From a virus (Duplodnaviria > Caudoviricetes), in IMG/VR virus record IMGVR_UViG_3300021197_002023, positions 1-53,769 of that record: 53,769 nucleotides of DNA, one strand, 5' to 3'. Below, piece after piece: positions 21,334 to 53,700 of the stretch. The position numbers and the translations under genes are program-made. A model generated the notes under the pieces. It did no database searches and was not told the DNA's origin. It saw only the letters and a program-made list of their open reading frames with translations. Numbering within the stretch: position 1 is the first letter of the stretch; every line of letters starts with the position of its first letter.

Positions 21334-21355
21334 AAGCGCAGGAGTCTTAAAATAA

Positions 21356-29500: not shown

Positions 29501-32500
29501 GTTGCATCTGCTGCATTGAAAATTAATTTAGAGCCAATATCAAATAAGTGCTTGGATGATCAAGCCACAGAAATGAATCTCAATGCTTCTCTGGTGATGT
29601 ATAAACATGTAGATGTTAGATATGTTGTAGAATTAGATATCGACGAAAGGGAATTAATATTAACTATGGCAGGTCAGGGAGTATTTCAACTTGACGGGAC
29701 CATAGATCAGTACGAAGACATTGGCATATCTCTAAAAGACATCATAGACAAGACTTTTGGAAACGTTTCGTCGGAAGATATCAAGGAAGAATTGGATAGT
29801 GGAAATTATGACTTTGATTTATCAGGAAATGGGGAAATTGATTTTCAAAATCTCCCCGGTGCTGGAATATTCCCCCCATCCGAAGTAGACGAGATATGTG
29901 CATTGTTCGCAGAACCAGAATTATTGCAAAAAACTTTCGATATTATGGAGCAAAATCCAGCTAATATTGCGGATAATGATCCATGGAAATGCACAAGTTA
30001 TCTTTGTCTAAAAGAAATTGGTCAGCCAACTTATCGATTAAAGAAAGAGCCCGGAAAAGATGCTCAAAATATTGGATATCTAGATGACGGAACTATAGTG
30101 AAGGTTACAAAAGAGTGGGCGATTGGGAAGGGAGAATATCACAAGGTTTTAATTGTGGATAATAGCTCTCCATATTTTATGGAGGAAGGCTATATACCTC
30201 CCGAGTTGCTTAAGCCGCTGTTCCCAAATACACAACAAAACTCAAAAATCTTCTTCAATCAGATATTTGATAATTTAAGTTTGGCAGAATCTCCAAAATT
30301 AGAAATGTCTGAAATGGCTAAAGCTCTTATTCCAAATTGGTGGAAAATGGAGGAGCCCTATTATCACAGAGAAGATATGGAGTATTGGGCAAATGTTGAA
30401 TTACCATATGACTGTGTTGTCGATGATCAAGATTTAGAAGCCAAGAAGCAAGAAGCAGTTATTTTAGGAATTGAGCAGTTGTTTAATTACTATAATGTTC
30501 TCTATACAGATGATGATATAAAAACCTTGGCTAATACTTATTTAGCAGCGAGGGCAGAGGAATGTTATATAGATTCTAGACCCGGTGCTCCAATTAAAGT
30601 TCTAGTGAAAGTGGGAGCAATTTATCTAAATGCTTTTCCAAATCAAGTGAAGAAGTTGCAAGATTTGAAATCTAGTTCTGCTAAAATCTTGTCACTGGAC
30701 TCAAGACATTATCAAACACATCTACAACACGCTATATTTTCTTTAAACAAAATATATTTAGACATTTTCTCTTCAAAATTCTCAGTCCCCGGATTAGATT
30801 TGGAAGCAGAGGCGCAAAGACTCTCTTATATCCCTGTTGGACTAAAAAAGATGCTCGCAGTTAATGGATATAACACAGGTGATGGTGATAGGCAAGACAT
30901 TATAAATTTAGGTTTTGATGAAAATTATGCTCTAACATTCGTTTCAATAATTGAGGACGCAGGACCATCCAGCAGTCCCGATTCTACAGAAGAAAAACTG
31001 GTCACGATTGGTTTTGATTTGTACAAAAATAGTGAGCCTTTCAATTTCCCAAATACAATGTCTCTGTTTTTTCATCATAGGGAATTGAAGAACCCTGTTT
31101 TAAAATGGCAAGATGTTGTGGAAAAGTGGATGATAAGCCCTACATATGAAATTGTTTCAAAAGATGAAGCAGGACCGCTGAATCTGCCATCCAACAGTTG
31201 TGGCTTAAAATACTTTGATTTACCACCTCTTACTGAGATAATGATGGGCATTGGTGAAAAAATAGATCTTGGATTAGACCTTCATCCAAGATATGATCTT
31301 GGTGCTTTTCAATTTAATTTGTTGCAATTTTTTCCACCTTGTCCAAAGCCTGCACCCGGAAAAGGGTCTCCATTTTATAAAATGCTTTCTGAGATTGATG
31401 GGCAGACCGTTGATTTTAGTCAAATGGACTTTATGGAAGCTTTGGAAGAAGAATCTTCAAGGGTACAGCAGTATGTAGGCGATTGGTTGGCATCGGGTGC
31501 TGCACTCAGAGATATAAGAGGTAAAATCTTTGATTTGGACGATTTGTATCTGTATGTTTTAAATTATATTACCCCAGAAGCTCTGTATAGTAAGATATGC
31601 AAATGCTTTATAGATCTAATGGGAATAGAGGGAATCCCAATCCCAAATCTTGAAATTAGCGCATCAGGCGGATCTGGAGGGTTGAATTTAGATCCGAATA
31701 CGCTAAAGAACAACCCAAAAAATATTTATAGTGGTGAGGGGGCAAAATTTAACACTAATTTTGTCGACAAAGATGGCAAGTTAAAAAACAAAGACTCTTT
31801 CATGGAAACATTAGCCGCAGAGGACTTGTTCTGCTCTTTTTGCTTTAACATACCATCGATTTTCTTTAGATTGCCGACAACTAATTTGTTAGATTTTTTA
31901 ATCTCTGCCCTGAAGGCGATTTTAGAATTCGCTTTAGCCCAAATTCTGCTCGAATTAATTATGGCATTGTTGGATGCATTGTTGACATGTCCAGAAATTA
32001 ATTGCCCCTCTAGTCAGGGAGGTATTAAAGACTATGGCGCACAAAGCCTTGCAGAATTAGCGCCCAATGGAGTGGAAACCTATAGAGAGTGTGGCATACC
32101 AATTGACGGAGTTAATGTCACAAATGAGTCGGTATCATCGATGCTAGAAGAATGTTCTAATTCTTTAACAACATCGGAGGTGCTTGGCTTACTTGATGGA
32201 AGCGCAACAAAAGAAACTTTAAAAGTCATAGAGAGAGTCATTACAAAATATCCGAATATATCAAGCCAGATCAATACTACCGCACAGCTAACAACAATTT
32301 TTTCTTGTGTTGGAAATAAAGTTGGACCTGATACACTGGGCGATTTAGGGTTTGAAGTAACTACTTTAGTAAATGACAAAAATTTGTGCCAAGAGTTGAT
32401 ACAAACTAACGAGCAAGCGATTTTGGATAAGTGTGGTAATATACCAGATGCGCTGTCTATGGCTTCCAAAGTTTTAAATCCGGATTTTAGTAAGTACGCA

Positions 32501-35915: not shown

Positions 35916-37751
35916 GTGCCTAATAATAAAAAAAGAAAAATACCAATCAATTATACAAGCAGAGAATTCAACTCCATCAAAACTGATCTGGTAAATTATG
36001 CAAAAAGATATTACCCAGATACTTTTCAAGACTATAATGAGGCTTCTTTCGGATCTTTAATGTTAGATTCAGTAGCCTATGTGGGAGATATTTTATCGTT
36101 TTACTTAGACTATCAAGTAAATGAGTCCTTTTTGGACACTGCCAACAATTATGAGAATGTTTTAAAGTTGGCAAAACAATTAGGGTATAAAAAAACAGGC
36201 ATCCCAGTTTCAACAGGTCCAGTTGCCCTTTACGTAATCATACCTGCCGCAACAGTTGGGGATGACATATCATTTCAGCCAGATTACTCATATGCCCCAG
36301 TCTTAAGAAGGGGTGCGATTTTCTCAACCATTTCGGGTGTTCCATTTACTTTGGTAGAAGATGTTAATTTTAATAGCACTTCTTCGGAAGCTGTTGTTGC
36401 AGAAGTAGATCCAACCACTTCAAACCCATTGAGTTATGCCATAAAAGCCTACGGGCAGGTAATTTCTGGAGAGGTCTTTAAACAAAATTTCACCATCGGA
36501 GAGTACGAAAGATTCCCCAGAATTTCCCTAGCAGGAAACAGTGTAGTAGGAGTGACATCTGTTGTCGACTCAGACGGGAATAAATTTTATGAAGTGGATC
36601 ACCTCTCACAAGACACAGTTTATATTCCAGTTAGGAATAACAATATAGATTTATCAAGCCAAGTTCAAGATACGGAACCTGTTTTTATAATGAAACAGCT
36701 TTCTGTTCCAAGAAGATTCATAACTGTACATGAGGGTGGGAAAACATTTCTACAATTTGGGTTTGGATCTGAGGATAATTTGAATTCTGAAGTTGTTACT
36801 GATCCATCTCGGGTAGGCATAAACATGCATGGCAGAGACTATATACAAGATGTCTCTTTTGATCCGACTAATCTTATAACAACGGACAAATTAGGTCTTG
36901 CGCCATCTAATACGACTTTGACTGTCACTTACAGGCAAAATAGCGCACAGAATGTCAATATTTCAGCAAAAACTCTTACAAATATAACAAACCAATCATT
37001 TGATTTCTCTAATATTGGATCTTTAAACAGCGCAAAAGTTAAATCTGTCATTGCATCTTTGGAGTTTGAAAACGAAGATCCAATTGTTGGAAGTACGCGA
37101 GAGGATTCATCTGAAGAAATAAAATATAAAGCATATGGAATGTTTTCATCTCAAAACAGGGCAGTAACTCAACAGGACTATATGTCATTAATATACAATA
37201 TGCCTGCAAAATTTGGATCAGTTAAGAGAGCGGCTATTTTACAAGACAAAAATTCATTCAAAAGAAACTTAAATGTGTATGTTGTTTGTGAGGATGAATT
37301 CGGAAAATTAACGGCATCTAACTCAGCTATAAAAAATAATATTAAAACTTGGCTATCAACAAACAAGATGATCAATGATACAATAGATATTCTGGATGCG
37401 AAGATAGTTAATTTAGGATTGCAATTTAGTATAATTACAGACACAAACGTAGATGCTTATGAGATACTAAACGAGGCTACAAAAAGCTTGCAACAATATT
37501 TTAGAGATTCATCCTTAAACATCGGCGAGTCAATTAGGTATGGAGATATTTTGAGAGTGTTGAAGAACATAGATGGGCTTTTAGATGTTGTTCAGTTGAG
37601 AGTTGTTAGAAAAACGGGAGCTTCATATTCAACAGCGATATTTAATATAGATCAAATGACAACGGCAGACGGAAGAATAGTAGTAGCGCCATCGGATGTA
37701 ATATTCGAAGTAAAATTTCCAGAAGTAGACATAACAGGGACAATTGCATAA
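35916..37751 (+). CDS. Baseplate wedge subunit, T4 gp6-like
   Basis: YTSREFNSIK, DYNEAS, VGDILSFYLDYQVNESFLDTA, AKQLGYK, QFGFG, QNRAVTQQDY. Confidence 0.9.
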   Translation: MPNNKKRKIPINYTSREFNSIKTDLVNYAKRYYPDTFQDYNEASFGSLMLDSVAYVGDILSFYLDYQVNESFLDTANNYENVLKLAKQLGYKKTGIPVSTGPVALYVIIPAATVGDDISFQPDYSYAPVLRRGAIFSTISGVPFTLVEDVNFNSTSSEAVVAEVDPTTSNPLSYAIKAYGQVISGEVFKQNFTIGEYERFPRISLAGNSVVGVTSVVDSDGNKFYEVDHLSQDTVYIPVRNNNIDLSSQVQDTEPVFIMKQLSVPRRFITVHEGGKTFLQFGFGSEDNLNSEVVTDPSRVGINMHGRDYIQDVSFDPTNLITTDKLGLAPSNTTLTVTYRQNSAQNVNISAKTLTNITNQSFDFSNIGSLNSAKVKSVIASLEFENEDPIVGSTREDSSEEIKYKAYGMFSSQNRAVTQQDYMSLIYNMPAKFGSVKRAAILQDKNSFKRNLNVYVVCEDEFGKLTASNSAIKNNIKTWLSTNKMINDTIDILDAKIVNLGLQFSIITDTNVDAYEILNEATKSLQQYFRDSSLNIGESIRYGDILRVLKNIDGLLDVVQLRVVRKTGASYSTAIFNIDQMTTADGRIVVAPSDVIFEVKFPEVDITGTIA

Positions 37752-39673
37752 TGGCTATTAAAAGATACATTGCAACATCAGACAACACGATCACGAATGC
37801 ATTTCAAATGGATCTTTCTACGAGAGGCACAGGATCTAATATGGGCGCAGCAGACACACTAGAAGCATTTTATATTTATGGTCAAGTAAGCTCTTCTGCT
37901 GGAACAACTGCTGAAAAATCAAGGATTCTTGTTCAATTTGATATCGACAAAATGAATCAAGATAGAACTAACGGATTGATTCCTGCTAGTGGTAATGTCG
38001 CTTGGTATTTAAACCTTTACAATGCCCCCCACTCATTTACTCTTCCCAAAGATTTTAAGATGGTTATTAAAGTTTCTTCTGGTTCTTGGCAAGAAGGGCA
38101 TGGCTTGGATATGGATAACTATACAAACCAAACCTACGAAGGGACAGGATCTAACTGGGTAAGAAAAGGCGCATCCGGAGATGGTAATTCAACTTGGCTA
38201 ACTGAAGGTGGTGATTTCGCAGAAAGCCTACTATCTCCAGTCTATACTGCTTCATTTACTGACGGAACAGAAGATTTGTCTGTTGACATTAGCGACATTG
38301 TTGAAGATTGGATGACTGGTGGAGTGACAGCTTCTACTCATGGTCTAGTTGATAACGCTGCCTCCCCTACAAATACAGATGATATTACTTTTACTCTCAT
38401 AGACTCCCAAGGAACAACTGTTGTATTTAGGCTGGATAAGGATGTCACAACCGCAGGAGAAGTCATAGGCACCTCTGGATTGGCGAACGCCGCCGCGATC
38501 ACAACTAAGATCATAGAATCAATAAATAATGTAACTCAGTTGAGAATAACGGCCGCTTCTTCTGACGCTGGAACAAATATATTTACTATAACTATGGATG
38601 ACATAGGGTTGGCGGGAAATAAAATTGGTGGTCCCGGAGATTTTGAAGATTCGGGCTCTAACAAAACTGGAACACAGTGGATCACAACTGAAAATGACAA
38701 TTTTGTAAATGGGACAGGTATACCAAACTACGGACTAGGGGTGTTCTTATCTTCTAGTTATGAGACTGGATCTCACTCATACTATACCAAAAAGTTCTTT
38801 GCTAGATCAAGTGAATACTTCTTCCTTAAGCCAAACCTAGAAGCTCGATGGGACTCTTCTGAAAAAGACAACGCTGTTAATTTTGCAATGAGTAGTTCTT
38901 TAGCAACCGGAGAGGACAATTTAAACACCCTCTATTTGTACAATTATGTTCGAGGGAAATTGCAAAACATCCCGAATAACGCATCTCACGCGAACACAGG
39001 CGTTAAAATGATGGTAAGCCTATACTCTAACTCGGCAGGTAATTTATACGATAAGTTGCCTCTCCCAAAGGGTGGAGGTGTTGTTACAACGGGTCACTTA
39101 AATGTGACAGGCGGCATTATCTCAACAGGAGTTTACACCGCTTCATTAGCGATGAGCCACTCTTTAGACTCAGTATACGCTGCATGGCATTATGACGATG
39201 TTGTCACTTATCATACTGGCTCTGAAATTGCTGTCAACACTTTGAATGCATCCAATTTCAACCCCGATCCAGATTATGTAACAACCATTGATAATTTAAA
39301 ATCTGTTTATTCTAGAGAGGAGGATGCTAGATTTAGATTGTTTATTAGGTCTAAAAATTGGAATCCAAATAATTACACTACAATGCAATCAACTATTCCT
39401 AGCGAGGCTGTGGAAGACGCATATTTCAGTTTATATAGAATTGTGGATGATTATGAAATAATTTCTTATGGCACTGGTTCTGCGACGTCTCCCCAAGGTG
39501 ATGGCACAGCAGGCTCATATACGAGATTATCTTACGATATTTCTGGGAATTATTTTGATTTAGATATGAGTTTGTTACAGGCTGGCTATGAATATGGATT
39601 AAAGTTTGCTTACTATTCAAATGGATCTTACAGAGAGCAGAAAGAAGTGTTTAAATTTAAAGTAGAGGAATAG
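37751..39673 (+). CDS. Putative virion structural protein (640 aa), beta-rich
   Basis: DNTI...SRILVQFD...WQEGHG pattern reminiscent of DNRLRE-type domains; translationally coupled to the gp6-like gene. Confidence 0.6.
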   Translation: MAIKRYIATSDNTITNAFQMDLSTRGTGSNMGAADTLEAFYIYGQVSSSAGTTAEKSRILVQFDIDKMNQDRTNGLIPASGNVAWYLNLYNAPHSFTLPKDFKMVIKVSSGSWQEGHGLDMDNYTNQTYEGTGSNWVRKGASGDGNSTWLTEGGDFAESLLSPVYTASFTDGTEDLSVDISDIVEDWMTGGVTASTHGLVDNAASPTNTDDITFTLIDSQGTTVVFRLDKDVTTAGEVIGTSGLANAAAITTKIIESINNVTQLRITAASSDAGTNIFTITMDDIGLAGNKIGGPGDFEDSGSNKTGTQWITTENDNFVNGTGIPNYGLGVFLSSSYETGSHSYYTKKFFARSSEYFFLKPNLEARWDSSEKDNAVNFAMSSSLATGEDNLNTLYLYNYVRGKLQNIPNNASHANTGVKMMVSLYSNSAGNLYDKLPLPKGGGVVTTGHLNVTGGIISTGVYTASLAMSHSLDSVYAAWHYDDVVTYHTGSEIAVNTLNASNFNPDPDYVTTIDNLKSVYSREEDARFRLFIRSKNWNPNNYTTMQSTIPSEAVEDAYFSLYRIVDDYEIISYGTGSATSPQGDGTAGSYTRLSYDISGNYFDLDMSLLQAGYEYGLKFAYYSNGSYREQKEVFKFKVEE

Positions 39674-39680
39674 TGCCAGT

Positions 39681-42600
39681 ATGAACATATACGACTTATA
39701 TGGTGGAACATTTTCTGGCGGACCCGGAAAGATTGAGGTAATTGCTAAGAATCCCGGAGCAAGCATTGTTAAGCCCGGATCTATGAAGGAATACCGTGTT
39801 GGCACCAGTATTGATCAAATTTCTAGAAAAATAGAATCACCCGATTATATCTCTGAATTCTCTTTCGATAGAAGTCGCTACATACCTCAGATAGATTTTT
39901 CTGATCCCTCAAAATTCGCTTATTTTGGATCTGCACAACAATATTACATAAAGGCAATAGAGAATATATATCGATTCTATCCTTATGATGGATCTTTAAA
40001 AGAAAAATTAGAATGGCATAATGAATCATCCTACTTTGACAATTATGTTTTCGAAAAAGAATACCCTAGAACTAATGGGTATGTAGAAATAGGCGAAACT
40101 TGGGGATCTGCTGCAACGTCGACATTGACCGTAGCTCCAGACCAGTACAAATTATCCAATGCCCCACAATATATATCAGTTAAGGGAGGACCCCATGCGG
40201 CTTCCGTGCCAACCTATACTTCTGGCACATATAGTAAAAATTTAAGTTTTAAAGAAGCGGAACAGAAAGCGAATATATATGATGCAGAATCTCGCCAAAT
40301 GCAAAATTTTACTATTGATGGAACAAAGGGAAATACAGTAGAGTTTTGGCTAAAGCTACCTCTTGAGCCATCAAAGAGTCAGACCTCCCCATCTCATGCA
40401 TACTTTGATCTTTGGAATGGCGAAACCATAGGGCAAAATCCATATGGAAGGTTTCTTGTCGAAACAAGATATAACAACTCGACAGGACCAGCAGGGGATT
40501 ATGTAGGAGATAGTTTTTTCCATATTACCTATATGAGCGGTACCGCAGGAGTCCTTAGAGCAAAAGTAGGAGCAAAGGAGCTAACTGGAGCGCTCGGCAT
40601 AAATCTAGCAGATTGGAACCACTGGGCCTTTACTGTAGAAAATGCTACAACCGATGACTTAGAGATTAAGCTCTACGCCAATGGGGAATTAATTGAAACA
40701 ACTTTAACGGGATCAGCAATTCAACCAGTCCGAACAGGGTCATTCAATGCCCTCATAGGTGCTTACAAACATGCCCCGGACTCCGATGCAGCTTCTGCTG
40801 GATTTCTTGGAGAAGGAAATGGAACCCTAAGCGGATCTTACTTTGATGAATTTAGATTTTGGACAATACATAGAGATTCTGATGATATCAAGTTTAATTG
40901 GTTTAAGCAAGTGGCAGGCGGTACCAACACGGATTATGGCACCGCAAGGTCTAAATTTTACCGAGATACAAACCCGGTTAATTTGGGCGTATATTTTAAA
41001 TTTAATGAAGGAATTACAACCTCTGCGGAGCATGATAGGGTTACGCTAGATTATTCTGGTCGTGTGTCTAATGGCTATATTTCTAATTACACTTCCGCCA
41101 TGAGATCAACCGGATCAGCAATTGTGGAGAAAAAAGCTGCCACAAGAGAATTTAAAGATCCTATCATATATAAGTTCCATCCAGATGTGGTCGCGTATGA
41201 GCACTCTTCTAGCATAAAAGGAAGAGAATACGACGGAAGAAACTCAATGTTCCTGCAAAACATGCTCCCAAGTTGGATAATTGAGGAAGATGAATTTAAG
41301 GGAAAAAACCAAGCGCTATACTTAAACCAGATTTTGGCAAGCTATTTAGATAATTTGTATCTTCAAATTGAAAAAATGCCTAGCTTGAAGAATATTGACT
41401 ATGTTAGTGGATCTTCAAGTGGTAGCATTAATAAGCCAATTCCTTTTGCTGACAGATTATTGGCAAACGCTGGTCTTGTTGTCCCCGAAATATTTTCAAA
41501 TGCCAATGTTTTTGAGTCTTTAGCAGATAGAGATGACGAGAGAGAATTTGAAAGAAAGCTGAATGATATTAAGAATCAAATATATTCAAATATATACAAT
41601 AACTTAATTTATATCAACAAATCAAAGGGTACCATTAAGTCAATTACAAACATGATGAGGTGCTTTGGGGTTGATGATGATTTGTATAGCATTAATTTTT
41701 ATGCCAACAATGCTCAATTGGATTTAAAAGGCAATTTTGTACCCAAGACAATTAGAAAAAGTTATGCCGATTTCTCAACAGCAGATAAGTTTGGAGCCAG
41801 CGTGTTTCAAATGACACAATCTAGCAATACTAATTCTGTGTCTTTCATTACTGGTAGTTACAAAGGGGCAACTGAGGCATCCCCATCGGCAGATGGTTGG
41901 GACACAGAGAACTCATTCACACTAGAGACGGAAGTTCTTTTTCCAAACTATCCCAACCCAATTCAGCCGGGAGGCAGAGAGAGGGATTTTAATAATGTTT
42001 CCGCGTCATTGTTTGGCATTCACTCGGCAGTTGTCGAGGCAGCATCTGACCCCGGAGATACAACTTGGGCAGGCAGAGATTATGCAAACTTTCAAGTTTA
42101 TGCGGTTAGAGAAAAAGCAAATAATGCAGAAAACGAAAGCAGAAATGTAAGATTTATTTTAACATCGTCAAACCCACTATCTACAGATAATGGCTTGATT
42201 TCTGAGATGACTTCTCAAACATTTAAACAAGTTTATGATGGTGACCGATGGAATTTTTCTGTTAGAGCATACCCATCTAAGTACCCGAATGTTGGCTATG
42301 TATCGGGGTCTGAAGATACCGAATATACAGTGCAATTTACAGGGTTTAACATGGTGGGAGACGTTGTTAAAGATAGTTTTGACCTAACGTCCTCTATATC
42401 AAGAACAAACGGTATTTTGTTCAATAACAGCAATAAAAGAATATATGTTGGTGCTCACAGAACCAACTTTACCGGGGACCTTCTGTGCCCCACTAATGTT
42501 AAAGTTTCATCTTGTAGATATTGGGCGATAAAGCTGGAAGATCATGAACTTTACTCACATGCTCTTGATCCAAAAAATTATGGTGTCTATAATCCAATGC

Positions 42601-45600
42601 AAACCTCCCATCTTTTACAAGACAGGGGTGGGCAATATCCGGTTGATATACCAAAAATAAAATCATTGTGGATGAACTGGGATTTTGACACGCTCACCGG
42701 ATCAGACACTGGGGAATACAATGGAGAATTTTCTGTAGCTGATTTCTCTTCTGGTTCCGGCGAAAATATATACAAAAGTTATATATCCGCTGGTGCAGAG
42801 AAGCAACATACGGGAAGAGGTGTGTATTTCCCTGCTGGAAACAACCAAACAGGGTCAATTTCTAGGGAATATGTTTATGCATATAGGCAACAAGTACCAG
42901 AAAATTTAAACAACCTAAACGCAATTAAAGTTTTAAACAGAGACGATGAGTTTTTTACCAAGAGAACAAGACCAGTTAGCTTTTCCATGTCAGTCGAGAA
43001 GAGCATGTACCAGAACATTTCAGAGGAAATGATCAACTTTATCGCAGCTTCTCAGGAAGCTAGTGCTATGGAAGACCTTATTGGTCGACCAGTTAATAAA
43101 TATCGAGACAGATACAAAGATTTAGAAAAAGTAAGAAATATATTTTTCACTAGAATAGGCAATGTCCCCGATGTTGATAAGTATATAGAGTATTTTAAGT
43201 GGTTAGACACCAGCATCAGTCAGATGATACAGCAAATCGTCCCCGTATCTTCTAATTTTAGTTCAGTGAGGAATATGATTGAAAGTCATATTTTTGAAAG
43301 GTCTGGAAAGTACAAGCATAAATTTCCAACGATAGAGCGGGTTTATCCAAAAGATAAGTCTGTTGATGAGTATCTAAACCAAATACAATATAATTCAATA
43401 CAAACCTCTGAAGGCGGATACAATGCAATTGCGACAAGCCGCCTTTCACCAGAAACCTTAAGTATACGAGGCTCAAATGTTAGCGTCCCTTCGCACATGG
43501 CAAGGCAACTAACTAGCTGGTCTAATAATCACGCCAGCATAGAAAATGCTGGAGACACACCTGATCAGGCTGAGTCTTTGTGGTGGTGGAGAAATAGAGT
43601 AGAATTTAGCGCTGATACGTCAAAAAATTCAGGCAATACAGCTTTAAATACATCTGCCACTAAAACTTTTGAAGCAGCCACGTCTCGCACACAGCAAGCT
43701 GGTTATAATATTATATTAAGCTCCGAAGAGACGCCGATATCCTCACCAAACCCGGACAGTATTTTATCTTTTGCAGTTGATTCTGGAGGAGATGCCATTT
43801 CCTTTAATGACCAAAACAGATCTAGACCGAAAAAAGACAGGAACTTTAGAGATGTTGTGTTTAGGGAGGCACCTGCTGGTTCTGGAACTAGACTATCTTT
43901 CAACACCTCTACTTTTGCAAGACAACCTAACACAAACACTCTGGATAAAATTGATCCAAACAGAAAGTTCAAGCCAGAATTTAATGTCGAGTTACCCTCA
44001 GTCTCCACTGAGACCGGCGTTGATGGTAGAAAATACGCCCCGATATCTTTCCAGAGTTCATCAACGAGCAATCCATTTGTAACAGGAAGCACCCCGTGGC
44101 ACATAGGCTATGAACTTTCAACTCAGCATCTGCAAGATTATTATTTAGATAATAAAGATATTCCTATACAAGGTCCATTTACACAACAAAATGTGGGTGG
44201 TTACGCTTATAGACACGCTGGCTTAAATCTTGGTGTCGCGTCCACAACAAGACAAGAGGCTTGGTATGCATACAGAACAATTACAGCCAATCCCAATGGT
44301 GTTAGGTTTGACTTTTACAATATTTATGATCTGCCCGGAGGTGTAAATGCTCCGAGAGCTACAATGCTAAGAGAAGAGGTTGCCAAGAGACCTTTAAATA
44401 TTAAAAATATAAAAAGCACCACTTCTAGCGCTAATACGCAAAATCCGTATTTACCACCAGTTAATGAACTCGGCTCAACCAAAGTATATAACGGTAATTA
44501 CGAAAAAGATTATCAGATAATTCAAATAGCAGACAGAGACACAAACAATAGGTATTTTGTCGACAATGGTGGTATTTCTACGGCATCTGCCGCATCTACC
44601 GGAACGCCATCTGTTTCTGGCTCATACGACTGGACGGTGCCAGATAGGGGCAAAAACGAACATATATTTGTTAGTAGATTCTCTGCCCCCGGAGGTCCTG
44701 AAGTTAATGGTCAGGCGTTTTTAAATTATGAGTCTGAGGTATATTCTCCTTATAATGCAATGACATACAGAAACTTATCAGTTAGGCAACCATTACAGAC
44801 GCTGCTAACAAGGCATACTGCTTTTGGTGGTTTAGAAAATGACCCCGGAGATGCCGCCTCCTTAACTAAAGCAATAAAAATTACTGGAGTTGCTAATAAT
44901 GATAGGTTTACAGTAATCGTACCATCCGCGATTAGCGGATCAAATACCACTATAACCATTAGAGTCCTTTCAACAGCCTTGGGCACCCCCCCATCAAATG
45001 AGGCACAAGTTCGAGAAGGAAGTTCTGCCGAGGCTACGAGAAACAGAATGGTGGGTCTAATCAACGGAAATAATGGTGTTGCCACGACTGTATACAAGTA
45101 TGGTGCAGGATCTGGCGATTACACAAGTGGTATCGCAGGAATTACAGCCACAGCAGTTGATGACGGCGGTCAGTTTTTCATAACAATAACTGCGAACAAG
45201 GATGGAGCCGCAGGAAATGGCACTATATTCACAGATGTTGCGGGAACTATGATTGCTGGCGGCGGCGCTGGATCATCCCCAGCAAGACTCTTTGGGGGAA
45301 GAGGGGTATCTTTTCGGGCGTCATTTCACAAAACACAAAGAAACGCTATAAGGCGTATAAAATATACAGATATATTTGGAACAGCAGCAACAAGTAGTAT
45401 TTATGACAACTATTATGTGCAGCATCAAATTCCTCAAAGCGATAGGCAATACGCTTGGATTAGCGCTTCTGCTGTAACGACTCCTTTAGGGTTTTCTCAA
45501 AAAGATTATGCTAACAGAAGTTTTGCGTCAACCGATATAGCATTTGTTACTGCAAGTGATTTTGGCGCATTCATCAACACTTCGTTGTTGGGAAATGGAA

Positions 45601-48600
45601 AGTACATTTTTGGTCGCCCCGCCGCCTCCGCAGGGGCACTTTTCTTGCCACAAGATTTTATAGGTTTAAACAATTTTACATATCTAAGCGCCAACGAGAT
45701 GGACAACAATACACTGTCGTTTAATTTAAATACTGATTTTGTTGGGGCAACCATTGTTGGCGGTGCTTTGGGCAGCGCTGCACCCGTAGAGGGACTAAAC
45801 ATAAATCTTTTAAAAGGCAATGGTCCATACGGCTACCCTTCTTGGAAGCAGATACAAAATTCATATAATCCAATTGTAAGATACATGAAGCGTATTAATA
45901 GGTTTTCTATTTTAACAGAGAACATAACGATTTCTCCCGGCGATCTTAAGCAGCAGTATTTAAAAACTCAGACCTTGCAGAACTTTACTGAGCCGATGGT
46001 TTCTTTCAAATATAAGCCAATTGAACATGATTTGATTGCGATTACAGAGAAAGATGAGCAAACTAAAATAGAAATAGATAGTTCTTATTCAAATTGCCTA
46101 TCTGGTTTTGCTAATAATAAAATAGATCTGCTTTTGAATTACAAAAAGAATATAAATGATATAAAATTGGTATATAACTCTCTAAAAAATATGTACTTGG
46201 GAAACAACATTCCAAGTGGATCTAACCCAGTTAAGGGCTTGGAAAAGCTCTCCTACAGAGAGGTGGTTTATCCACGCGAAAGAAACACAGGTTTAGCAAA
46301 AACAAGGAGCAGGGAAAACTATACGGTTTCAAGTGGATCTTCTGATTTTAATCTTCGCTTGGGTGATTCTTTGGCTTTTTGGAAAGACAATATCAATGAT
46401 AGATTAAGAAGTGATGCAGAAGCGAGAAATGCACAGGGGTTGATTATCGCCAGTGGCTCGTCCTACTTTGGATTAACTGACATGAGTATTTGGCCACTAG
46501 ACGCCGAGGAGCCATTTTTAGATTTATATCAAATATCTTCTTCTGCTGGACAAGACGGAAAGCACGATCCATATTATTGGGCACCCTTATCCCCTTCATC
46601 AGCCGCCGGAACACCTCTTGGGGGATTAAATCCAGCTAGAACTTCAAGAATCGGGAACTTAAATAAAAATGGAGAATTATCATACGCTGGTTACATCTAT
46701 GGCTTATTTGGAATTAACATTCAGGGCAAGGTGCGCCAAGAGGGAGCACTAACTGGCTCAGGGCCCCTTCCAAACTTTTTGGGCAATGGCACTTCAGATG
46801 ATGGCTTGAACTACAGCCCTTCGGCGTCGTTTCAATATGAATACCCAAGCATGATGATGTCTGGTGCTATTGCAGGCTCGCGTTTCAACTCTCCCTCCGC
46901 CTCTTTACACCTCATGGCTCCATATCGAGCCGATATTTTGAGCGGGAAAACCCCATGGTTCAATTCTTATGAAGATTACGCAGAGGATATTAGAAGAATA
47001 GCAAAAGATTACACAGTAATTCCTGAGTTTAGAATCTCAGATCACATAGATTATTATTTAAAAGAGGGATTCTTTGCTGATAATAACAAATTTTTGGACA
47101 TAATAGGGGCTTCGCTGGCTAACACGTCTAGTGCCACAGCAGAAACTGGCTCTTTTCAGCCAGACTTCTTTAAAGTGTATTCTCATAGTGATTTTATGAA
47201 ACATTTTTCCATCATTCAGGAAGATCACAAGAAAAACAGCACTGCTTTTGCATCTACATTGAGATTAGAGGCTAGCGCCATAAAAAAATTGTTACCATAT
47301 CAAGGATTTTATCCTGTTTTGAGGTCTATGCAATTAGGACAACTATTTTCTTCTTCTTATGCGCCTTTTATAACTGGCTCCAATGCGCGTGACGGAGCAC
47401 AAGAGCGACTCGCTGCACTTTACCAGCCATTTTTTGCTCCGGGTATTTTCTTTAATACAATTAAGTCAGGCATTGCCGTTTCATACCCAGTACATACAGC
47501 ATCTGCTCCGATTTTAGATAAAGCTAATGGTCTAACTGTTTCTGTCCCGACTTCGGCATCTTTATTCGTGTCAAATGTGTATACGACAACTCCGAATTAC
47601 AACTTCCCATTCGAAGCTATTCTAGACCCAGATCAGTATTTGCCATTGTCTTCGTCTCTAACCAGTTCGACAATAAACACTTTATCTTCGAGCGTGTACT
47701 TTGTATATCCAAACTTTACGGGATCTGTTGCTGGCAATGCTTTTTTTGATAGTTATTATACTGCACAGACAGTCGACAACCCGTATACTCCGTATGGTGG
47801 GGTGGTGAGAGATCAGCCTCAATTCTTTTTCGAGTGGCAGGGACAAAGTGACCCCAAGTATTCTATTGCTGCGAGTAATTTCTTTGCAGAGACAGTTGAT
47901 TTTTTCTTAGATCGAGGCACTTTAACTAGTTTTATTTCGAAACCCGAGAAAGATTTTAAGTCTATGGTGTCTGGATCAACGTACTACATGGACGTATTAC
48001 TGTATAAAACAGATGACTATGTGTCCTACGAAGGACCACCATCAGGGACGTTCAATTATGATGGAGGGGCAAAATATGCTGATGGTGGTTTCTTATCAGA
48101 CGCTCTAAAGAATGCAAACGGAGATGGATTCTTAAATAAAGGAATTTCAGCTAGAGGAATGCATTATGGTCCGTCCTACAAATCTAGTGGTATTGCGTGG
48201 GGGTCCACCGGTACCGGAAGCGTACCATATGCTGCATTTAGGGCGCAGGACCCAACTTACGCTCCACATACACCCCCATATTTCTATGGAACCTCTAGAG
48301 CGAGAATTGGCTTTAAGCCTGACAAAGTAAGAGACATGACATCTGGTGAATCATCCAAATTTACTTTAGAGGAAGTTTTATCAAATGCAAAAGTAGAAAC
48401 AATCTACCAGAATGAAAACGAAAGAGCCAAAACCTTGCAAGAGGACAGCTATAGAAATAATTTTGCTGCTGGCATCTCCCAGATGCAGTTGAGTTCTTCT
48501 GTTAATCTTTTTGGACAGATCACCCTTAAAGAAATCCAGTATGGCACAGAAAGAAACCGCGATGGAACCTTTAAGGCAAGAAGCGCAACAACTCCAGTTG

Positions 48601-49580
48601 TTCAAGGTACTAACGACGCTTGGATTATCGAAACAAAATTTGAGTGCCCCTCTGTCAATATGGCGCACATGGACACTGCCTCCCTCGGTGCGGGAATAGG
48701 GGATGGAAAAGAAAAATATCACACAAGAGGCATTTGGAAGGGGTATGGAGTAGTACCATCTGGATCAGAGGGTCTTTTCTTGCAATTGAAAGAAAGCTAT
48801 CCACAAGTAACAAATGATATTGGTGGAACTGTGTCTGGTGAGCTAACTGGCTCTCTTATTGATGTATGTGGGTTTAAAGCATCCAAAGAAAGAATCGGAG
48901 AGATGAGAAGTAAAAAAACAATTTCAGAGGCTATTGTTGCAGTTCCAATTGATGAAAAAGGAAATTTCTACACCATAGATCCTGCTATGTTTGAAAAACA
49001 AAGATTGAATTATGAGACAAGCAATAAAGCTCTAATGGCAGGCGACTTTGGCATCGAAAACGATATTGGAGAAACTTCAATTACACAGATGATTGAAAAA
49101 ATGAAAAAGTTCTCCCTTCCCCCTCAAATGGATTTTCTAAACAACCCCAATGTTGATCCTTTTGTTATGTATATATTTGACTTTACTCACACCCTTGATA
49201 AGCAGGATTTGGCAGATATTTGGCAGAACTTAATGCCGAAAATCTCCACGACAGCGGAGAGGGGCACCTCTGCCATTGAGCACGAGATAGGGGTTAATTA
49301 TGAGTTCTTTGGTCGGTATAAAAAAGGGCAATTGCCTGATAATATTAGGTGGATGGTTTTTAAGGTAAAGCAGAAGGCAAGAAATAATTACTTCAATGTC
49401 ACACAACAGTCTGAGGTTGCAAAAGGATTCACCTTTACTGCCCTCAAGGAACTGCAAGGCATCGGATCAAATCCAGAAGCGGAATTAACATACAGTTACA
49501 ACTGGCCGTATGATTTCTTTTCTCTTGTTGAGTTGGCGCAAATTGAATCAGAGGTTGTTTTTGAGCCTCCAAAAGAATAG
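39681..49580 (+). CDS. Giant virion protein (3299 aa): LamG/concanavalin-like domain plus gp7/P2 gpI-like baseplate wedge segment
   Basis: TVEFWLK...WNHWAFT...LYANGE...FDEFRFW (LamG-like); LIYINKSKGTIKSITNMMRCFG (wedge KGT motif); a second possible LamG-like block near WNFSVR...SSCRYW. Confidence 0.65.
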   Translation: MNIYDLYGGTFSGGPGKIEVIAKNPGASIVKPGSMKEYRVGTSIDQISRKIESPDYISEFSFDRSRYIPQIDFSDPSKFAYFGSAQQYYIKAIENIYRFYPYDGSLKEKLEWHNESSYFDNYVFEKEYPRTNGYVEIGETWGSAATSTLTVAPDQYKLSNAPQYISVKGGPHAASVPTYTSGTYSKNLSFKEAEQKANIYDAESRQMQNFTIDGTKGNTVEFWLKLPLEPSKSQTSPSHAYFDLWNGETIGQNPYGRFLVETRYNNSTGPAGDYVGDSFFHITYMSGTAGVLRAKVGAKELTGALGINLADWNHWAFTVENATTDDLEIKLYANGELIETTLTGSAIQPVRTGSFNALIGAYKHAPDSDAASAGFLGEGNGTLSGSYFDEFRFWTIHRDSDDIKFNWFKQVAGGTNTDYGTARSKFYRDTNPVNLGVYFKFNEGITTSAEHDRVTLDYSGRVSNGYISNYTSAMRSTGSAIVEKKAATREFKDPIIYKFHPDVVAYEHSSSIKGREYDGRNSMFLQNMLPSWIIEEDEFKGKNQALYLNQILASYLDNLYLQIEKMPSLKNIDYVSGSSSGSINKPIPFADRLLANAGLVVPEIFSNANVFESLADRDDEREFERKLNDIKNQIYSNIYNNLIYINKSKGTIKSITNMMRCFGVDDDLYSINFYANNAQLDLKGNFVPKTIRKSYADFSTADKFGASVFQMTQSSNTNSVSFITGSYKGATEASPSADGWDTENSFTLETEVLFPNYPNPIQPGGRERDFNNVSASLFGIHSAVVEAASDPGDTTWAGRDYANFQVYAVREKANNAENESRNVRFILTSSNPLSTDNGLISEMTSQTFKQVYDGDRWNFSVRAYPSKYPNVGYVSGSEDTEYTVQFTGFNMVGDVVKDSFDLTSSISRTNGILFNNSNKRIYVGAHRTNFTGDLLCPTNVKVSSCRYWAIKLEDHELYSHALDPKNYGVYNPMQTSHLLQDRGGQYPVDIPKIKSLWMNWDFDTLTGSDTGEYNGEFSVADFSSGSGENIYKSYISAGAEKQHTGRGVYFPAGNNQTGSISREYVYAYRQQVPENLNNLNAIKVLNRDDEFFTKRTRPVSFSMSVEKSMYQNISEEMINFIAASQEASAMEDLIGRPVNKYRDRYKDLEKVRNIFFTRIGNVPDVDKYIEYFKWLDTSISQMIQQIVPVSSNFSSVRNMIESHIFERSGKYKHKFPTIERVYPKDKSVDEYLNQIQYNSIQTSEGGYNAIATSRLSPETLSIRGSNVSVPSHMARQLTSWSNNHASIENAGDTPDQAESLWWWRNRVEFSADTSKNSGNTALNTSATKTFEAATSRTQQAGYNIILSSEETPISSPNPDSILSFAVDSGGDAISFNDQNRSRPKKDRNFRDVVFREAPAGSGTRLSFNTSTFARQPNTNTLDKIDPNRKFKPEFNVELPSVSTETGVDGRKYAPISFQSSSTSNPFVTGSTPWHIGYELSTQHLQDYYLDNKDIPIQGPFTQQNVGGYAYRHAGLNLGVASTTRQEAWYAYRTITANPNGVRFDFYNIYDLPGGVNAPRATMLREEVAKRPLNIKNIKSTTSSANTQNPYLPPVNELGSTKVYNGNYEKDYQIIQIADRDTNNRYFVDNGGISTASAASTGTPSVSGSYDWTVPDRGKNEHIFVSRFSAPGGPEVNGQAFLNYESEVYSPYNAMTYRNLSVRQPLQTLLTRHTAFGGLENDPGDAASLTKAIKITGVANNDRFTVIVPSAISGSNTTITIRVLSTALGTPPSNEAQVREGSSAEATRNRMVGLINGNNGVATTVYKYGAGSGDYTSGIAGITATAVDDGGQFFITITANKDGAAGNGTIFTDVAGTMIAGGGAGSSPARLFGGRGVSFRASFHKTQRNAIRRIKYTDIFGTAATSSIYDNYYVQHQIPQSDRQYAWISASAVTTPLGFSQKDYANRSFASTDIAFVTASDFGAFINTSLLGNGKYIFGRPAASAGALFLPQDFIGLNNFTYLSANEMDNNTLSFNLNTDFVGATIVGGALGSAAPVEGLNINLLKGNGPYGYPSWKQIQNSYNPIVRYMKRINRFSILTENITISPGDLKQQYLKTQTLQNFTEPMVSFKYKPIEHDLIAITEKDEQTKIEIDSSYSNCLSGFANNKIDLLLNYKKNINDIKLVYNSLKNMYLGNNIPSGSNPVKGLEKLSYREVVYPRERNTGLAKTRSRENYTVSSGSSDFNLRLGDSLAFWKDNINDRLRSDAEARNAQGLIIASGSSYFGLTDMSIWPLDAEEPFLDLYQISSSAGQDGKHDPYYWAPLSPSSAAGTPLGGLNPARTSRIGNLNKNGELSYAGYIYGLFGINIQGKVRQEGALTGSGPLPNFLGNGTSDDGLNYSPSASFQYEYPSMMMSGAIAGSRFNSPSASLHLMAPYRADILSGKTPWFNSYEDYAEDIRRIAKDYTVIPEFRISDHIDYYLKEGFFADNNKFLDIIGASLANTSSATAETGSFQPDFFKVYSHSDFMKHFSIIQEDHKKNSTAFASTLRLEASAIKKLLPYQGFYPVLRSMQLGQLFSSSYAPFITGSNARDGAQERLAALYQPFFAPGIFFNTIKSGIAVSYPVHTASAPILDKANGLTVSVPTSASLFVSNVYTTTPNYNFPFEAILDPDQYLPLSSSLTSSTINTLSSSVYFVYPNFTGSVAGNAFFDSYYTAQTVDNPYTPYGGVVRDQPQFFFEWQGQSDPKYSIAASNFFAETVDFFLDRGTLTSFISKPEKDFKSMVSGSTYYMDVLLYKTDDYVSYEGPPSGTFNYDGGAKYADGGFLSDALKNANGDGFLNKGISARGMHYGPSYKSSGIAWGSTGTGSVPYAAFRAQDPTYAPHTPPYFYGTSRARIGFKPDKVRDMTSGESSKFTLEEVLSNAKVETIYQNENERAKTLQEDSYRNNFAAGISQMQLSSSVNLFGQITLKEIQYGTERNRDGTFKARSATTPVVQGTNDAWIIETKFECPSVNMAHMDTASLGAGIGDGKEKYHTRGIWKGYGVVPSGSEGLFLQLKESYPQVTNDIGGTVSGELTGSLIDVCGFKASKERIGEMRSKKTISEAIVAVPIDEKGNFYTIDPAMFEKQRLNYETSNKALMAGDFGIENDIGETSITQMIEKMKKFSLPPQMDFLNNPNVDPFVMYIFDFTHTLDKQDLADIWQNLMPKISTTAERGTSAIEHEIGVNYEFFGRYKKGQLPDNIRWMVFKVKQKARNNYFNVTQQSEVAKGFTFTALKELQGIGSNPEAELTYSYNWPYDFFSLVELAQIESEVVFEPPKE

Positions 49581-50722: not shown

Positions 50723-53700
50723 ATGGCTTACAATGTATCAGAACGAGATTTGAGTGGCGGTGTATTGCCAAATATTTATATCACCAATATTGATTTGTCG
50801 GCAGGAGCCATGTCATCTCGCTCAAAAAATGAAAATCCGCACACTTCCGCAGGATCAAATTCAACAAGGGGGTCTGCAAGTCCCACCAATCAATCTGCAA
50901 GTGGCAAGCCTGTTAAATCTGGGTCCCTAAAGGTAAATTTAAGCATGCATTTCAAAGCTAAAGGTTTGAATGCAGCATTAAATACGGGACTAACAAAGCA
51001 TTTAAAAGTTTTGTTAATACAGTGTACTAGCGAGACGTTGCATGACAGGTTGACTTCTGATATTTCGAATTTTATGTCCTCCTACATTGATACAGGCTCC
51101 ATGAGAGATGTTGAAGGTAAGCATTTTTCATATAGAATAATTTCTGCTTCAAACATAAAAAGTAATCTTTCCAAAAAAAGCACCACCAGTGGAAAAAGTG
51201 GATCTTCTCTTAGTAATATTTCACTCGATCAGAGTTTCACCTTAAATACACACCAAGACACCCCGGATGTCACATTCCTATCCTACTTTGCAATACCTTT
51301 CTTGGATAGAAATGAAATGCAATATGACTATGACGGGTCGTCTGAGTTTGGTAGAAATGATAGAAGAATCTTGTCTATGTCTTCCTTTGGAAACGTTTCA
51401 TCGGAAATTGTATTAAAGGGCGGCAGAACGAATAAAAAATCGTTTGCTTTTAAAAGCACAAGCATGAATGAATTTTGGATCGGTCCCAAGCACCAGATGG
51501 ATGATGGCTCATATATGAAGTATTCTTCTCACGGTGGAAATCCTAAAAATAACTTATTGATGATTGAGGTTGATAATATTAAAGTAAAAGACCACAGAGT
51601 ATATGATAAAATTTGTGGTTTAGATATTAACTTATTTGATGAGGAAAGCAGCATCATAGAAGATGAAAAAATAATCTCTGAGGCTAGAAAAGACCGTAGC
51701 TTATCTATGATAAATAAGAAAAATCATGATTTTATTTCTGAATTTATGATTACTAGAGACACGTTCAATAATGCTAGATTCATGTTCTCTATAGACGTTG
51801 AAGGTATGATTAGGAGTGCAACAGATTTTCCCATGTTTCTTTCGAATGTTAAATCATCAGATCATAATTTGTACAATACTTTAATAAAAAACACAAAAAT
51901 AAGAAATCTGAAGATTAGCAGAAGAACAATTAAGACCAATCAGGACACTAGCCTTCTTTTCAAAAAAGCCCCCTTTGTTGAGGGAGAAGAGAGCATAGTA
52001 ATATTAGAAACAGCCGATTCTAATAAAAGTTCTGGCTATTTAAAGCCAATCATTTATACTACGAATACAATTCAAGACCAAAGCGGAGAGTTATTGGGGG
52101 TTCAACCTCGCCCATTGGGATCTTTGGAGGAACTATCAATTGTGGTTACGTCTGGGAACGCTCCTGTAAGACATTTCAGCGGATCAGATTTTGATGTTTC
52201 AAAGAAAAAATCAGGGACGTATGAATATGTGCTGGAATTGGAGTTTGAAGATCCTGTGCTCCCAATGATGAAAACAATGCTTAACAAGTTAAAGCAGCTA
52301 ATATATGGCACAAGTCCATACGGAACATCTGGTCTCGAACAATACCACAGGGACAGCATTTCTCAGCCCGATGCATATGATAGTATTACAAATCAATTTA
52401 ATATGAGTTTTATAAATTTTTATAATAAAAAATATGGCGGCACTGACCAAAATATTAATGAAAATTTCATTTTCTACGCTGTAAATACGTTCATCAACAT
52501 GCTTTATTCTCTTTCTGGCACCGCAGGTTTTGGTCAGCAGTATATGTCCCAAGAGGATGCCCTGATGTATCTAACAAATATGTCTAGCCCAAATTCAGGA
52601 TCCCCAGAAGGAATTAGCAAATTTTTACAATTAGCTTATATTTTTCAAGAAAAAATCGAAGGAGTGATTCTAAAAAATTCAAGATATAAGAAATATAGAG
52701 GAGGAGGATTTGAAGAAGTCTTGGCTAACAACAAAGGCATACAATCGTCTAATGAGAGGAAGAATCAAAAAATTTCTCACACTTTTAAAGAAACCTATAA
52801 TTCAAATACAAATTCCCAAATTGGTTATGAATACCTGTTTAGCTCATCTTCCGATAAAGAAAACAACCTTAATGGTTTGACATTGTTTTCTGATTCTATA
52901 ATTAAAGAAAGGTTTAAACTAGAAACACAAAAATACTTTAAAGCACTTAACGCAGATGTGTCAATAGTTGATAAAGACAACAATGAATATAACCCCGGCG
53001 AAAATATAGAAAATACTAAATATTCTTTTTTGAGCACCTCAAACATATATTTATTAGAGAGTGACAAGAATATTATTTTTTCGAATGTTAATAAAAGAAT
53101 TAAAACACCAGAATTTAAAAAAATGAACGAGGTGTTGTCTCGTGTTTTGACATATAACTACGCAAAAGATACGCTTATTAACATGAGCGCTAGGCAAGAT
53201 GTAGATAATTCTGGATATAAATTGATACAAACATTAAATCAAGCATCTGTTGGAAATTCTAGAGACCTAAGAAGAGGAAAAGATCGTGCAAATTCCCATA
53301 GCGTATTCAAGGAAGGGGCAAAGAAAGAGTTAATTGATGATGGAGAGTTGCTATTCGTTGAACGAGAAGGTGATAGTGTGATATCATCTAACATGGTCGA
53401 CGATTACAAGAGGGTATTGATGTTGAGTAATTTTATATCAAATTCTGATTTTTTGAATGAAAATAATTCATCAAAATATTATTTCTTGAATGACGAAAAC
53501 GGAGCTAATAAAATTAAGGACAGAGCAAACTATAATCCCACAGGCTTAATTGGGGCACCCAACCAAATAAAATCTTTATTTCTATCTTTTCTGGGGTCTG
53601 ATAAGGTATATAACAATAGCGCATTTGAAGGCATGGGGAATTTATACGATATAAGCTCTGATGTTTTTAGAAACCCAGAATATGCAGGATTTATATTCTT

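Follow-up and report, generated by a model that had tools for sequence, protein, structure and literature searches.

Dispersed [ST]-[GAS]-S tripeptides in outer baseplate and fibre proteins of a marine myovirus lineage: candidate O-glycosylation sites linked to a phage glycan island

Introduction

Why does a short tripeptide crowd into some structural proteins of a tailed phage and stay at chance frequency in their neighbours? The question is raised by the IMG/VR record IMGVR_UViG_3300021197_002023, a 53,769-nucleotide (nt) stretch of viral DNA with an estimated completeness of 30%; the whole stretch is called the window below. In an initial annotation of the window, tripeptides of the form [ST]-[GAS]-S were proposed to be selectively enriched in a subset of structural proteins and to represent a modification sequon. 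The analysis reported here confirmed that the excess is real and stronger than the initial annotation could know; that it marks a sequon is something we infer. Related phages without a large sugar-synthesis island are also without the tripeptides, which suggests that these are sites of sugar attachment.

Results

Motif excess in two structural proteins of the window

The proteins of the window that matter most for the motif are the following.

26537..35437, + strand: 2966-amino-acid (aa) upstream giant protein, motif not enriched
35916..37751, + strand: gp6-like baseplate wedge protein, 611 aa (phrog_219, E 1.4e-27), 2 sites
37751..39673, + strand: 640-aa putative peripheral baseplate protein, motif-rich, 13 [ST][GAS]S sites including 7 [ST]GS
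39681..49580, + strand: 3299-aa putative giant distal baseplate or adhesin protein, motif-rich, 48 sites including 25 [ST]GS
50723..53767, + strand: last open reading frame (ORF), open at its 3' end, 1015 aa seen, 10 sites with 6 within the first 170 aa

Sites were counted by regular expression with overlaps allowed, and 2000 composition-preserving shuffles served as the null. The earlier hand counts proved to be exact for the 640-, 3299-, 2966-, 611- and 367-aa proteins (13, 48, 5, 2 and 0 sites, respectively), and the earlier figure of about six in the first ~170 aa of the last ORF also agrees with the regular expression. Shuffling bears out the claim that enrichment is confined to a subset of proteins. 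The 640-aa protein has 13 sites against 3.7 expected (standard deviation 1.8, z 5.25) and the 3299-aa protein 48 against 14.1 (standard deviation 3.7, z 9.2), far above the shuffled-composition range; none of the 2000 shuffles reached the observed number in either case. The 2966-, 611- and 367-aa proteins are at expectation; the first of them has 5 sites against 6.9 expected, and no [ST]GS against 2.3. The 26 other window ORFs, with 0 or 1 site apiece, are also at expectation. When local composition was kept by shuffling in blocks of 15, 30 or 60 residues, z was 5.0-5.6 for the 640-aa protein and 7.7-10.2 for the 3299-aa protein. Together, the global and block shuffles rule out composition and local low complexity as the cause in these two proteins. 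The last ORF has 10 sites against 5.0 expected (z 2.3), block shuffles give p 0.06-0.10 for the broad motif, and enrichment of the reversed motif equals or exceeds that of the forward one. This ORF is not a clear member of the motif-rich set, and composition or local low complexity is the likelier reading there.

The core of the signal is [ST]GS, with 7 sites against 1.2 expected in the 640-aa protein and 25 against 4.4 in the 3299-aa protein. In an unbiased tripeptide scan, TGS ranks first in both proteins (13 against 1.82, P 7e-8, in the 3299-aa protein), and SGS ranks second in the larger one (12 against 2.65, P 2e-5). Ser or Thr precedes 25 of the 39 Gly-Ser dipeptides in the 3299-aa protein, where neither [ST]G[^S] (31 against 40) nor [^ST]GS (14 against 22) is enriched. 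Enrichment of [ST]AS and [ST]SS is mild in the window (z 1.3-3.4). These forms share columns with [ST]GS in alignments of homologues and exchange with it there, and the degenerate class described in the initial annotation is therefore real. The comparison with the reversed motif, S[GAS][ST], gave a divided answer: it is not enriched in the 640-aa protein (6 against 3.6) but is enriched in the 3299-aa protein (34 against 14.1), partly because SGS counts in both directions.

The motif is encoded by varied codons, with 19 distinct 9-mers among the 25 [ST]GS sites of the 3299-aa protein and 6 among the 7 of the 640-aa protein. The sites are dispersed rather than tandem, as had been described; blastp shows no internal repeats in either protein. 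A repeat at the DNA level is ruled out by the varied codons and by the absence of repeats within or between the structural proteins (blastp, E<=1). Varied codons, no internal repeats and conservation across homologues at 35-50% identity together indicate a protein-level signal, as originally proposed. A hydrophobic residue before the site, which had also been noted, is a feature of the giant family (48% at position -1 against a background of 31%) but not of the 640-aa family (32% against 32%). No other extended sequence context was found around the motif in either family. Close pairs of sites are near chance, with 10 of 47 gaps at most 12 residues long against ~7.5 expected.

The motif is a conserved trait of a phage family

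Relatives of the 640-aa protein are encoded in 409 IMG/VR stretches, and those analysed here are the best 80 per scan. No cultured relative of this protein was found in the phage collection by blastn or tblastn. In the first 77 related loci, [ST]GS occurs 571 times against 85 expected in the 640-aa homologues and 1019 times against 223 in the downstream giants. The corresponding numbers are 36 against 62 for the upstream giants and 15 against 33 for the gp6 homologues. Totals over the motif-rich phages defined below are 1036 against 155.0 for the 640-aa family (6.7x), 1919 against 423.2 for the downstream giants (4.5x) and 77 against 112.7 for the upstream giant (0.68x). The motif trait is family-wide.

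The sites also hold their positions, as the initial annotation had suggested checking, across homologues of 35-50% identity. Among 72 homologues of the 640-aa protein, the motif is kept at window positions 27, 381, 463, 489 and 575 in 57, 70, 58, 57 and 71, respectively. In the giant, positions 384, 1006 and 1024 carry the motif in 42, 41 and 39 of 45 homologues. Variants other than [ST]GS at conserved columns are mostly [ST]-S/A-S or [ST]-G-T/A/N. They keep the candidate acceptor hydroxyls, with S/T at position 1, G/S/A at position 2 and mostly S/T at position 3, where N, A or G is sometimes found.

Avoidance is seen in gp6, a protein of the inner baseplate, where the motif is at 0.36-0.42 of expectation in motif-rich phages. 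The gp6 family has 97 broad-motif sites against 234 expected and 17 [ST]GS against 62.8, and after thinning to <50% identity 21 against 58.3 (n=36). Twenty structural proteins of phage T4, including gp6-gp12, fibritin and gp34-gp37, show no [ST]GS enrichment (lowest shuffle p 0.18); for the broad motif their lowest p is 0.04 (gp48) and their sum 38 against 35.4. In G001, a complete motif-rich relative of 192.6 kb, enrichment reaches P<1e-3 in three proteins: the 640-aa homologue, a giant of 5534 aa and a collagen-like tail fibre of 1778 aa (36 against 5.7). A few neighbouring baseplate-region proteins are mildly enriched, and the other 106 ORFs together have 102 broad-motif sites against 92.1. 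The motif excess is confined to outer baseplate and fibre proteins.

The G001 fibre (L091:12282-17618, - strand) is collagen-like at residues ~310-405; over the next ~1300 residues, periodic repeats centred on SGS...H...SSS recur at spacings of 10-11, 30-35, 62 and 73 residues. The repeat has no match in the phage collection by tblastn. Each repeat unit has a conserved single His, which might bind metal in a trimer.

Architecture of the motif-bearing proteins

The motif-rich proteins lie in a structural module on the + strand that encodes, in order, the 2966-aa protein, a gp25-like protein, the gp6-like protein, the 640-aa, 3299-aa and 367-aa proteins and the open-ended ORF of at least 1015 aa. 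The gp25-like gene (phrog_261, E 4.6e-22) adjoins the gp6-like gene, as in a T4-type baseplate wedge module. The order giant, gp25, gp6, 640-aa homologue, giant is common to all loci examined.

An AlphaFold2 (AF2) model of the 640-aa protein, with a predicted local distance difference test score (pLDDT) of 78.7, is all-beta. Its N-terminal part is a CBM96-like beta-sandwich that matches a chondroitin-sulfate-binding carbohydrate-binding module (CBM; 8wab_B, Z 17.8, root-mean-square deviation 2.6, 173/176 aligned) and also an alginate-binding CBM (Z 14.0). An inserted domain resembles domains of sheath and baseplate proteins and is T4 gp11-like (Z 7.9), and the C-terminal domains are Ig/macroglobulin (MG)-like. 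The AF2 model of the 3299-aa protein (pLDDT 67.5) holds ConA/LamG/pentraxin-like jelly rolls at residues 300-1200; Foldseek relates them to the LamG of PAPP-A, pentraxins, lectins, alginate and ulvan lyases and phage CBMs. Neither protein has a PHROG or Pfam match, to T4 gp7 or gp8 or to any other family, and the resemblance to CBMs and to the T4 gp11-like insertion is at the level of the fold only. The profile of the 640-aa family has no match at E<=1 among PDB sequences. These CBM- and lectin-like folds mark the two as peripheral proteins of host recognition that probably bind glycans. Motif sites in the two models are for the most part in coil, immediately behind a beta-strand, and several adjoin low-pLDDT loops.

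One clade lacks the motif and most of the island

The set assembled by walking outward from distant homologues holds 156 unique sequences of the 640-aa family. Within it, the ratio of observed to expected motif counts is bimodal: 10 are at <=1.5x, none lies between 1.5x and 2x, and 146 are at >=2x. The 10 and their close relative L139 (4 against 1.4) make up the motif-poor set of 11, which forms one clade. A further walk from L131 for more motif-poor lineages gave seven loci, which were left out of the analysis. In a gp6 tree of 151 tips, the motif-poor clade (support 0.66) is nested among motif-rich lineages. Motif-poor proteins are full-length and 33-38% identical to the 640-aa protein of the window, compared with 33-49% for motif-rich lineages; by sequence identity, many motif-rich lineages are at least as divergent as this clade. 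The downstream giants of the clade reach 1.2-1.3x expectation and those of the other phages 3.3-4.5x.

At the nine columns where at least half of the motif-rich sequences have the motif, the motif-poor clade has mostly charged or unrelated residues. TGS575, present in 131 of 146 motif-rich sequences, is replaced by EQT, EYT, VHT or IGT. SSS381 (135 of 146) becomes KSN, ISP, ASP or KRK, and [ST]AS463 becomes EAS, KAL or YVD. At TGS489, 8 of the 11 motif-poor sequences have SEE or EGE and 3 keep TGS. Charged replacements in full-length homologues suggest that these positions are solvent-tolerant, and they imply that the hydroxyls are dispensable for folding. Judged from these substitutions, the motif positions tolerate charge, as exposed loops do.

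The loss extends beyond the 640-aa family. No protein of G014, a motif-poor genome of 145 kb, is strongly enriched. Three Ser/Ala/Gly-rich fibre proteins of this genome, of 1120, 982 and 709 aa (69489-78284, + strand, loci L223-L224) are below expectation, with 12 sites against 15.2, 6 against 10.7 and 0 against 7.9. Within motif-poor genomes, motif loss thus hits several unrelated protein families at once.

A glycan island that varies between lineages

The size of a block of glycan genes sets motif-poor and motif-rich genomes apart, with no overlap. In the window, the + strand carries a PhoH-like gene with a PIN domain, a PD-(D/E)XK nuclease gene, this 18-kb block and the structural module, in that order; window G+C is 35-44%. 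The block and its flanks are as follows.

4383..5156, + strand: PD-(D/E)XK nuclease gene, conserved left flank, in 32/39 related records
5114..7681, + strand: two adjacent GT4-family glycosyltransferases of 431 and 422 aa (Pfam PF00534), start of the island
7681..9306, + strand: 541-aa protein with an N-terminal domain of ~280 aa (D280) and a GT2 domain (PF00535, residues 293-445)
9303..22312, + strand: variable part of the island, with sugar-modifying and sugar-nucleotide genes
23064..23747, + strand: 227-aa ORF, conserved right flank, in 36/39 related records

Island size was taken as the distance between the nuclease gene and the 227-aa ORF in records that span both flanks. The values run from 0.9 to 3.3 kb in the motif-poor records (9 of 9) and from 8.9 to 28.5 kb in the motif-rich ones (23 of 23), with the window at 17.9 kb. 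Motif-poor islands contain the two GT4 genes only (4 of 5 examined) or nothing, and G007 is without a glycosyltransferase at the locus. Motif-rich islands have the two GT4 genes, a third glycosyltransferase module and then 6-20 variable ORFs that share few families across lineages. In the window, the variable part encodes a GDSL esterase, a formyltransferase, a WecB-type UDP-GlcNAc 2-epimerase, a GNAT protein, two DegT aminotransferases, a GT11 protein, a B12-radical SAM methyltransferase, NadE, a UDP-sugar dehydrogenase and three epimerase/dehydratases. Among the conserved genes of the islands examined, there is no kinase or acyltransferase family.

Orthologues of the GT4 pair (42-60% identity) are present in 18 of 19 islands examined, including 4 of the 5 motif-poor ones. 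Against the PDB, the first GT4 has 21 matches at E<=0.01, including BshA, generic GT4 proteins and chlorovirus B736L (E 8.7e-8); the second has one, a WbaZ fragment. A weak NCBIfam match to SdgA (E 3.6e-4) is far below cut-off. D280 was found by hidden Markov model (HMM) search in 10 of 14 motif-rich islands and 0 of 5 motif-poor ones, and by single-sequence search in 16 of 28 motif-rich records and 0 of 11 motif-poor ones. The domain is found on its own, joined to a GT2 domain (the arrangement in the window) or joined to the second GT4. N-terminally, D280 has a GGAE motif, and its matches to glycogen synthase (GlgA; E 0.26-0.6) are weak but consistent; it is probably a small GT-B glycosyltransferase. 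In four islands (G003, G010/G031, G029), the third module is another type of glycosyltransferase.

In the 18 related records examined alongside the window (L086, L132-L138, L205-L219), the locus corresponding to 5100-23064 is a hypervariable cassette between conserved flanks. The first two GT4 genes and a small ORF of ~100 aa adjoining the right flank are near-universal, and nothing else is. In G025, the homologue of the 227-aa flank ORF (29010-29684) has one in-frame TAA.

Within the window's island, NadE (16177-16947, + strand) is a full NAD+ synthase, at 178 bits against a cut-off of 63.65, and is no obvious sugar enzyme; it may supply NAD during infection or serve in an amidation step. The B12-binding radical SAM protein (14252-16180, + strand) is closest to KedN5-type C-methyltransferases (E 1.2e-71, below the family cut-off), which suggests a C-methylated sugar or another unusual methylation. 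The 206-aa ORF at 12745-13365 (+ strand) matches only the N-terminal part of DegT (profile positions 23-95 of 360) and may be a truncated or split gene. The T4-type late promoter TATAAATA has 8 matches against 5.3 expected and gives no timing signal for island expression.

Discussion

The motif is directional, sits in loops of outward-facing proteins, is avoided in gp6 and has vanished, switch-like and across whole genomes, from the one clade without the extended island. This combination points to a motif that is read in trans by something the island provides. The island consists of glycosyltransferases and sugar-nucleotide enzymes, and O-glycosylation is therefore the most economical reading. 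We consider it somewhat probable that [ST]-[G>S,A]-S tripeptides are acceptor sites for O-glycosylation by the phage's own glycan island (5114-22312), a proposal that rests on one evolutionary event. Cytoplasmic glycosyltransferases would attach the first sugar to one hydroxyl of the motif late in infection, and the variable island enzymes would then build lineage-specific glycans on it. By gene content, these glycans could include ManNAcA-type, amino, formylated, methylated and fucosylated sugars. The outward carbohydrate-binding modules would thereby become coated with glycans, which might provide shielding, solubility or reduced self-adhesion.

A more complete picture can be offered only tentatively. 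A large uncultured marine myovirus lineage may possess autonomous O-glycosylation of its proteins, in which a three-residue sequon, present dozens of times in loops of receptor-binding baseplate and fibre modules, is used by cytoplasmic glycosyltransferases, glycans are extended by island enzymes and inner proteins have been purged of sites. Each phage lineage would coat its adhesins with a glycan of its own by means of a hypervariable, O-antigen-like island. One clade may have given up the system, with charged residues taking the place of the sites. The likeness to bacterial O-antigen loci is that content differs between lineages.

The sequon proposed in the initial annotation is partly supported. 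It withstands the refutation set out there: homologues from phages without an extended glycosyltransferase island, one record having no glycosyltransferase at the locus, lack the motif, and the sites lie in loops that accept charge. It is weakened by the fact that these homologues come from a single clade that mostly retains two glycosyltransferases. Several observations weigh against O-glycosylation. Since the motif-poor sequences form one clade, the link between island and motif goes back to a single evolutionary event, and the clade may be distinct in other traits as well. Both GT4 genes survive in 4 of 5 motif-poor islands, suggesting that these enzymes do not read the motif or have another role, and they match generic GT4 structures only. 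No extra gene is common to all motif-rich islands. An explanation of the motif by one extra gene is ruled out, as D280 is in 10 of 14 motif-rich islands only. Island size and motif density show no dose relation within motif-rich phages (rho 0.05). A restriction of gp6 depletion to motif-rich phages lacks robustness: the motif-poor clade has 14 sites against 14.1 before thinning and 2 against 5.8 after it (n=4). The positions are strongly conserved, and the exchanges SGS/SGN (Ser to Asn at position 3) and SGS/SNS (Gly to Asn at position 2) are turn-like. The motif in the G001 fibre belongs to a structural repeat with regular periodicity, of the form fVSGSsAvYHnLSSSaA.

The last two observations are those expected if the tripeptide were a structural micro-motif of beta-sandwich and jelly-roll modules, that is, a strand exit or tight turn with a left-handed Gly and Ser/Thr capping that is inherited with the fold. 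The retention of positions (57-71 of 72 at five sites of the 640-aa protein, up to 42 of 45 in the giant), the location of the sites at strand ends and in coil, and the single loss event agree with such a motif, and its disappearance from one clade could be put down to lineage-specific drift or to an altered loop architecture, coinciding by chance with island loss. However, homologues of the same length and architecture dispense with the motif at nine conserved columns, and the fold is therefore not dependent on it. Nor does a structural motif account for a bimodal density without intermediates, for the joint loss from several unrelated protein families in the same genomes or for the lack of [ST]GS enrichment in T4 structural proteins, and a local turn preference leaves the avoidance in gp6 unexplained. 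We regard a purely structural origin as unlikely, though it deserves serious weight. A non-covalent link, in which the loops belong to surfaces that bind carbohydrate and are adapted to a host glycan also made or mimicked by the island, or in which motif and island share a dependence on host type, appears improbable. The motif proteins are indeed built of CBM96-like and ConA/LamG-like modules, island and motif were lost jointly, and cyanophage papers, according to the available part of PMC12801897, usually read such gene sets as host-surface modification. But the sites occur across many different domains and loops, Ig-like domains and the collagen-like fibre among them, and extend beyond binding pockets, and the avoidance in gp6 is better explained by a trans-acting reader. 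The same motif is present where islands share almost nothing past the first two genes, which argues that it is not tuned to one glycan. Some other modification (phosphorylation, acylation or another change of serine), encoded outside the island or by the host, with a coincidental link to the island, seems very improbable. Room for it is left by the lack of an enzyme tied to the motif, by the persistence of the GT4 pair in motif-poor phages and by the window's coverage of 30% of the genome; against it, the glycan island is the only genomic difference found to track the motif, and no conserved kinase or acyltransferase family was seen in the islands examined.

O-glycosylation of the tripeptides would have partial parallels elsewhere. 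Giant viruses such as chloroviruses and mimiviruses encode their own glycosylation machinery and decorate surface proteins at non-canonical sites. They resemble the window phage in having sugar-nucleotide and glycosyltransferase genes of their own, and the nearest solved relatives of the first GT4 include chlorovirus B736L. They differ in their eukaryotic hosts and in their N-linked capsid glycans or glycosylated fibrils; here the candidate is an O-linked tripeptide in a tailed phage. In Gram-positive cocci, GtfA/GtfB carry out cytoplasmic O-glycosylation of serine-rich repeat adhesins in S-x-S type contexts. An adjacent GT4-type pair followed by further glycosyltransferases is common to both systems. 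However, GtfA/GtfB targets are long tandem serine-rich repeats and the window sites are dispersed, and no GtfA or GtfB chain is among the PDB sequence matches of the two GT4 proteins (21 and 1 at E<=0.01); the SdgA match below cut-off is the one related signal. Bacteroidota use D-[ST]-[AILVMT] as an O-glycosylation site. For the O-glycans of the S-layer protein of Kuenenia, an anammox bacterium, the site G-[TS]-X has been proposed in the available part of PMC5088730. Like the phage motif, these bacterial sites are three-residue Ser/Thr contexts with many copies per surface protein, and the Kuenenia site, as given in that part, also has Gly before the hydroxyl. Unlike it, they belong to cellular, envelope-associated systems; in the phage motif, hydroxyls flank a small residue and modification would be cytoplasmic.

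The closest precedent is in mycobacteriophages, in which phage glycosyltransferases are reported to glycosylate the virion, at the C-termini of capsid and tail-tube subunits (Freeman et al. 2023, as cited in the available parts of PMC12619734 and PMC12801897). In both cases, as far as those parts describe the mycobacteriophages, phage-encoded glycosyltransferases are thought to modify the phage's own structural proteins. In our case, the candidates are dispersed loop tripeptides in outer baseplate and fibre proteins, known from sequence alone, and the island is far larger and hypervariable. Papers on marine cyanomyoviruses read similar gene sets as host cell-wall or DNA modification (available part of PMC12801897). 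In the limited collection of literature searched, no paper describes a tripeptide sequon dispersed over the baseplate or fibre proteins of a phage, or co-variation of an island with a motif.

If O-glycosylation of the motif is correct, virion glycosylation, far from being an oddity of a few mycobacteriophages, would be common among abundant ocean phages and written in a sequence code that can be read. The large 'lipopolysaccharide (LPS) or cell-wall' gene sets of marine phages, usually taken to modify the host surface or DNA, would have to be read differently, and a simple sequence test for decorated virion proteins would become available. Glycan coats on host-recognising modules would bear on host range, particle stickiness and grazing. 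Should the motif prove structural, it is still a strong, switch-like signature tied to the island that is useful for sorting phages and choosing expression targets.

Other genes of the window

Three further genes lie outside the island and the structural module. The PhoH-like ATPase (1955-3262, + strand, 435 aa) has an N-terminal PIN domain fused to it and is 53-65% identical among relatives. The 246-aa ORF at 3640-4380 (+ strand), with relatives at 32-46% identity, has a sub-threshold match over ~40 residues to the metalloprotease-type Pfam family ATLF (23.9 bits against a cut-off of 27.4) and is probably a small zinc-peptidase-like protein. A Gly/Ala-rich 476-aa protein (24064-25494, + strand) resembles peptidase M74, a murein endopeptidase, at residues 261-326 and is likely a virion-associated cell-wall hydrolase. 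The relatives' versions of this protein are far longer, at 714-1291 aa.

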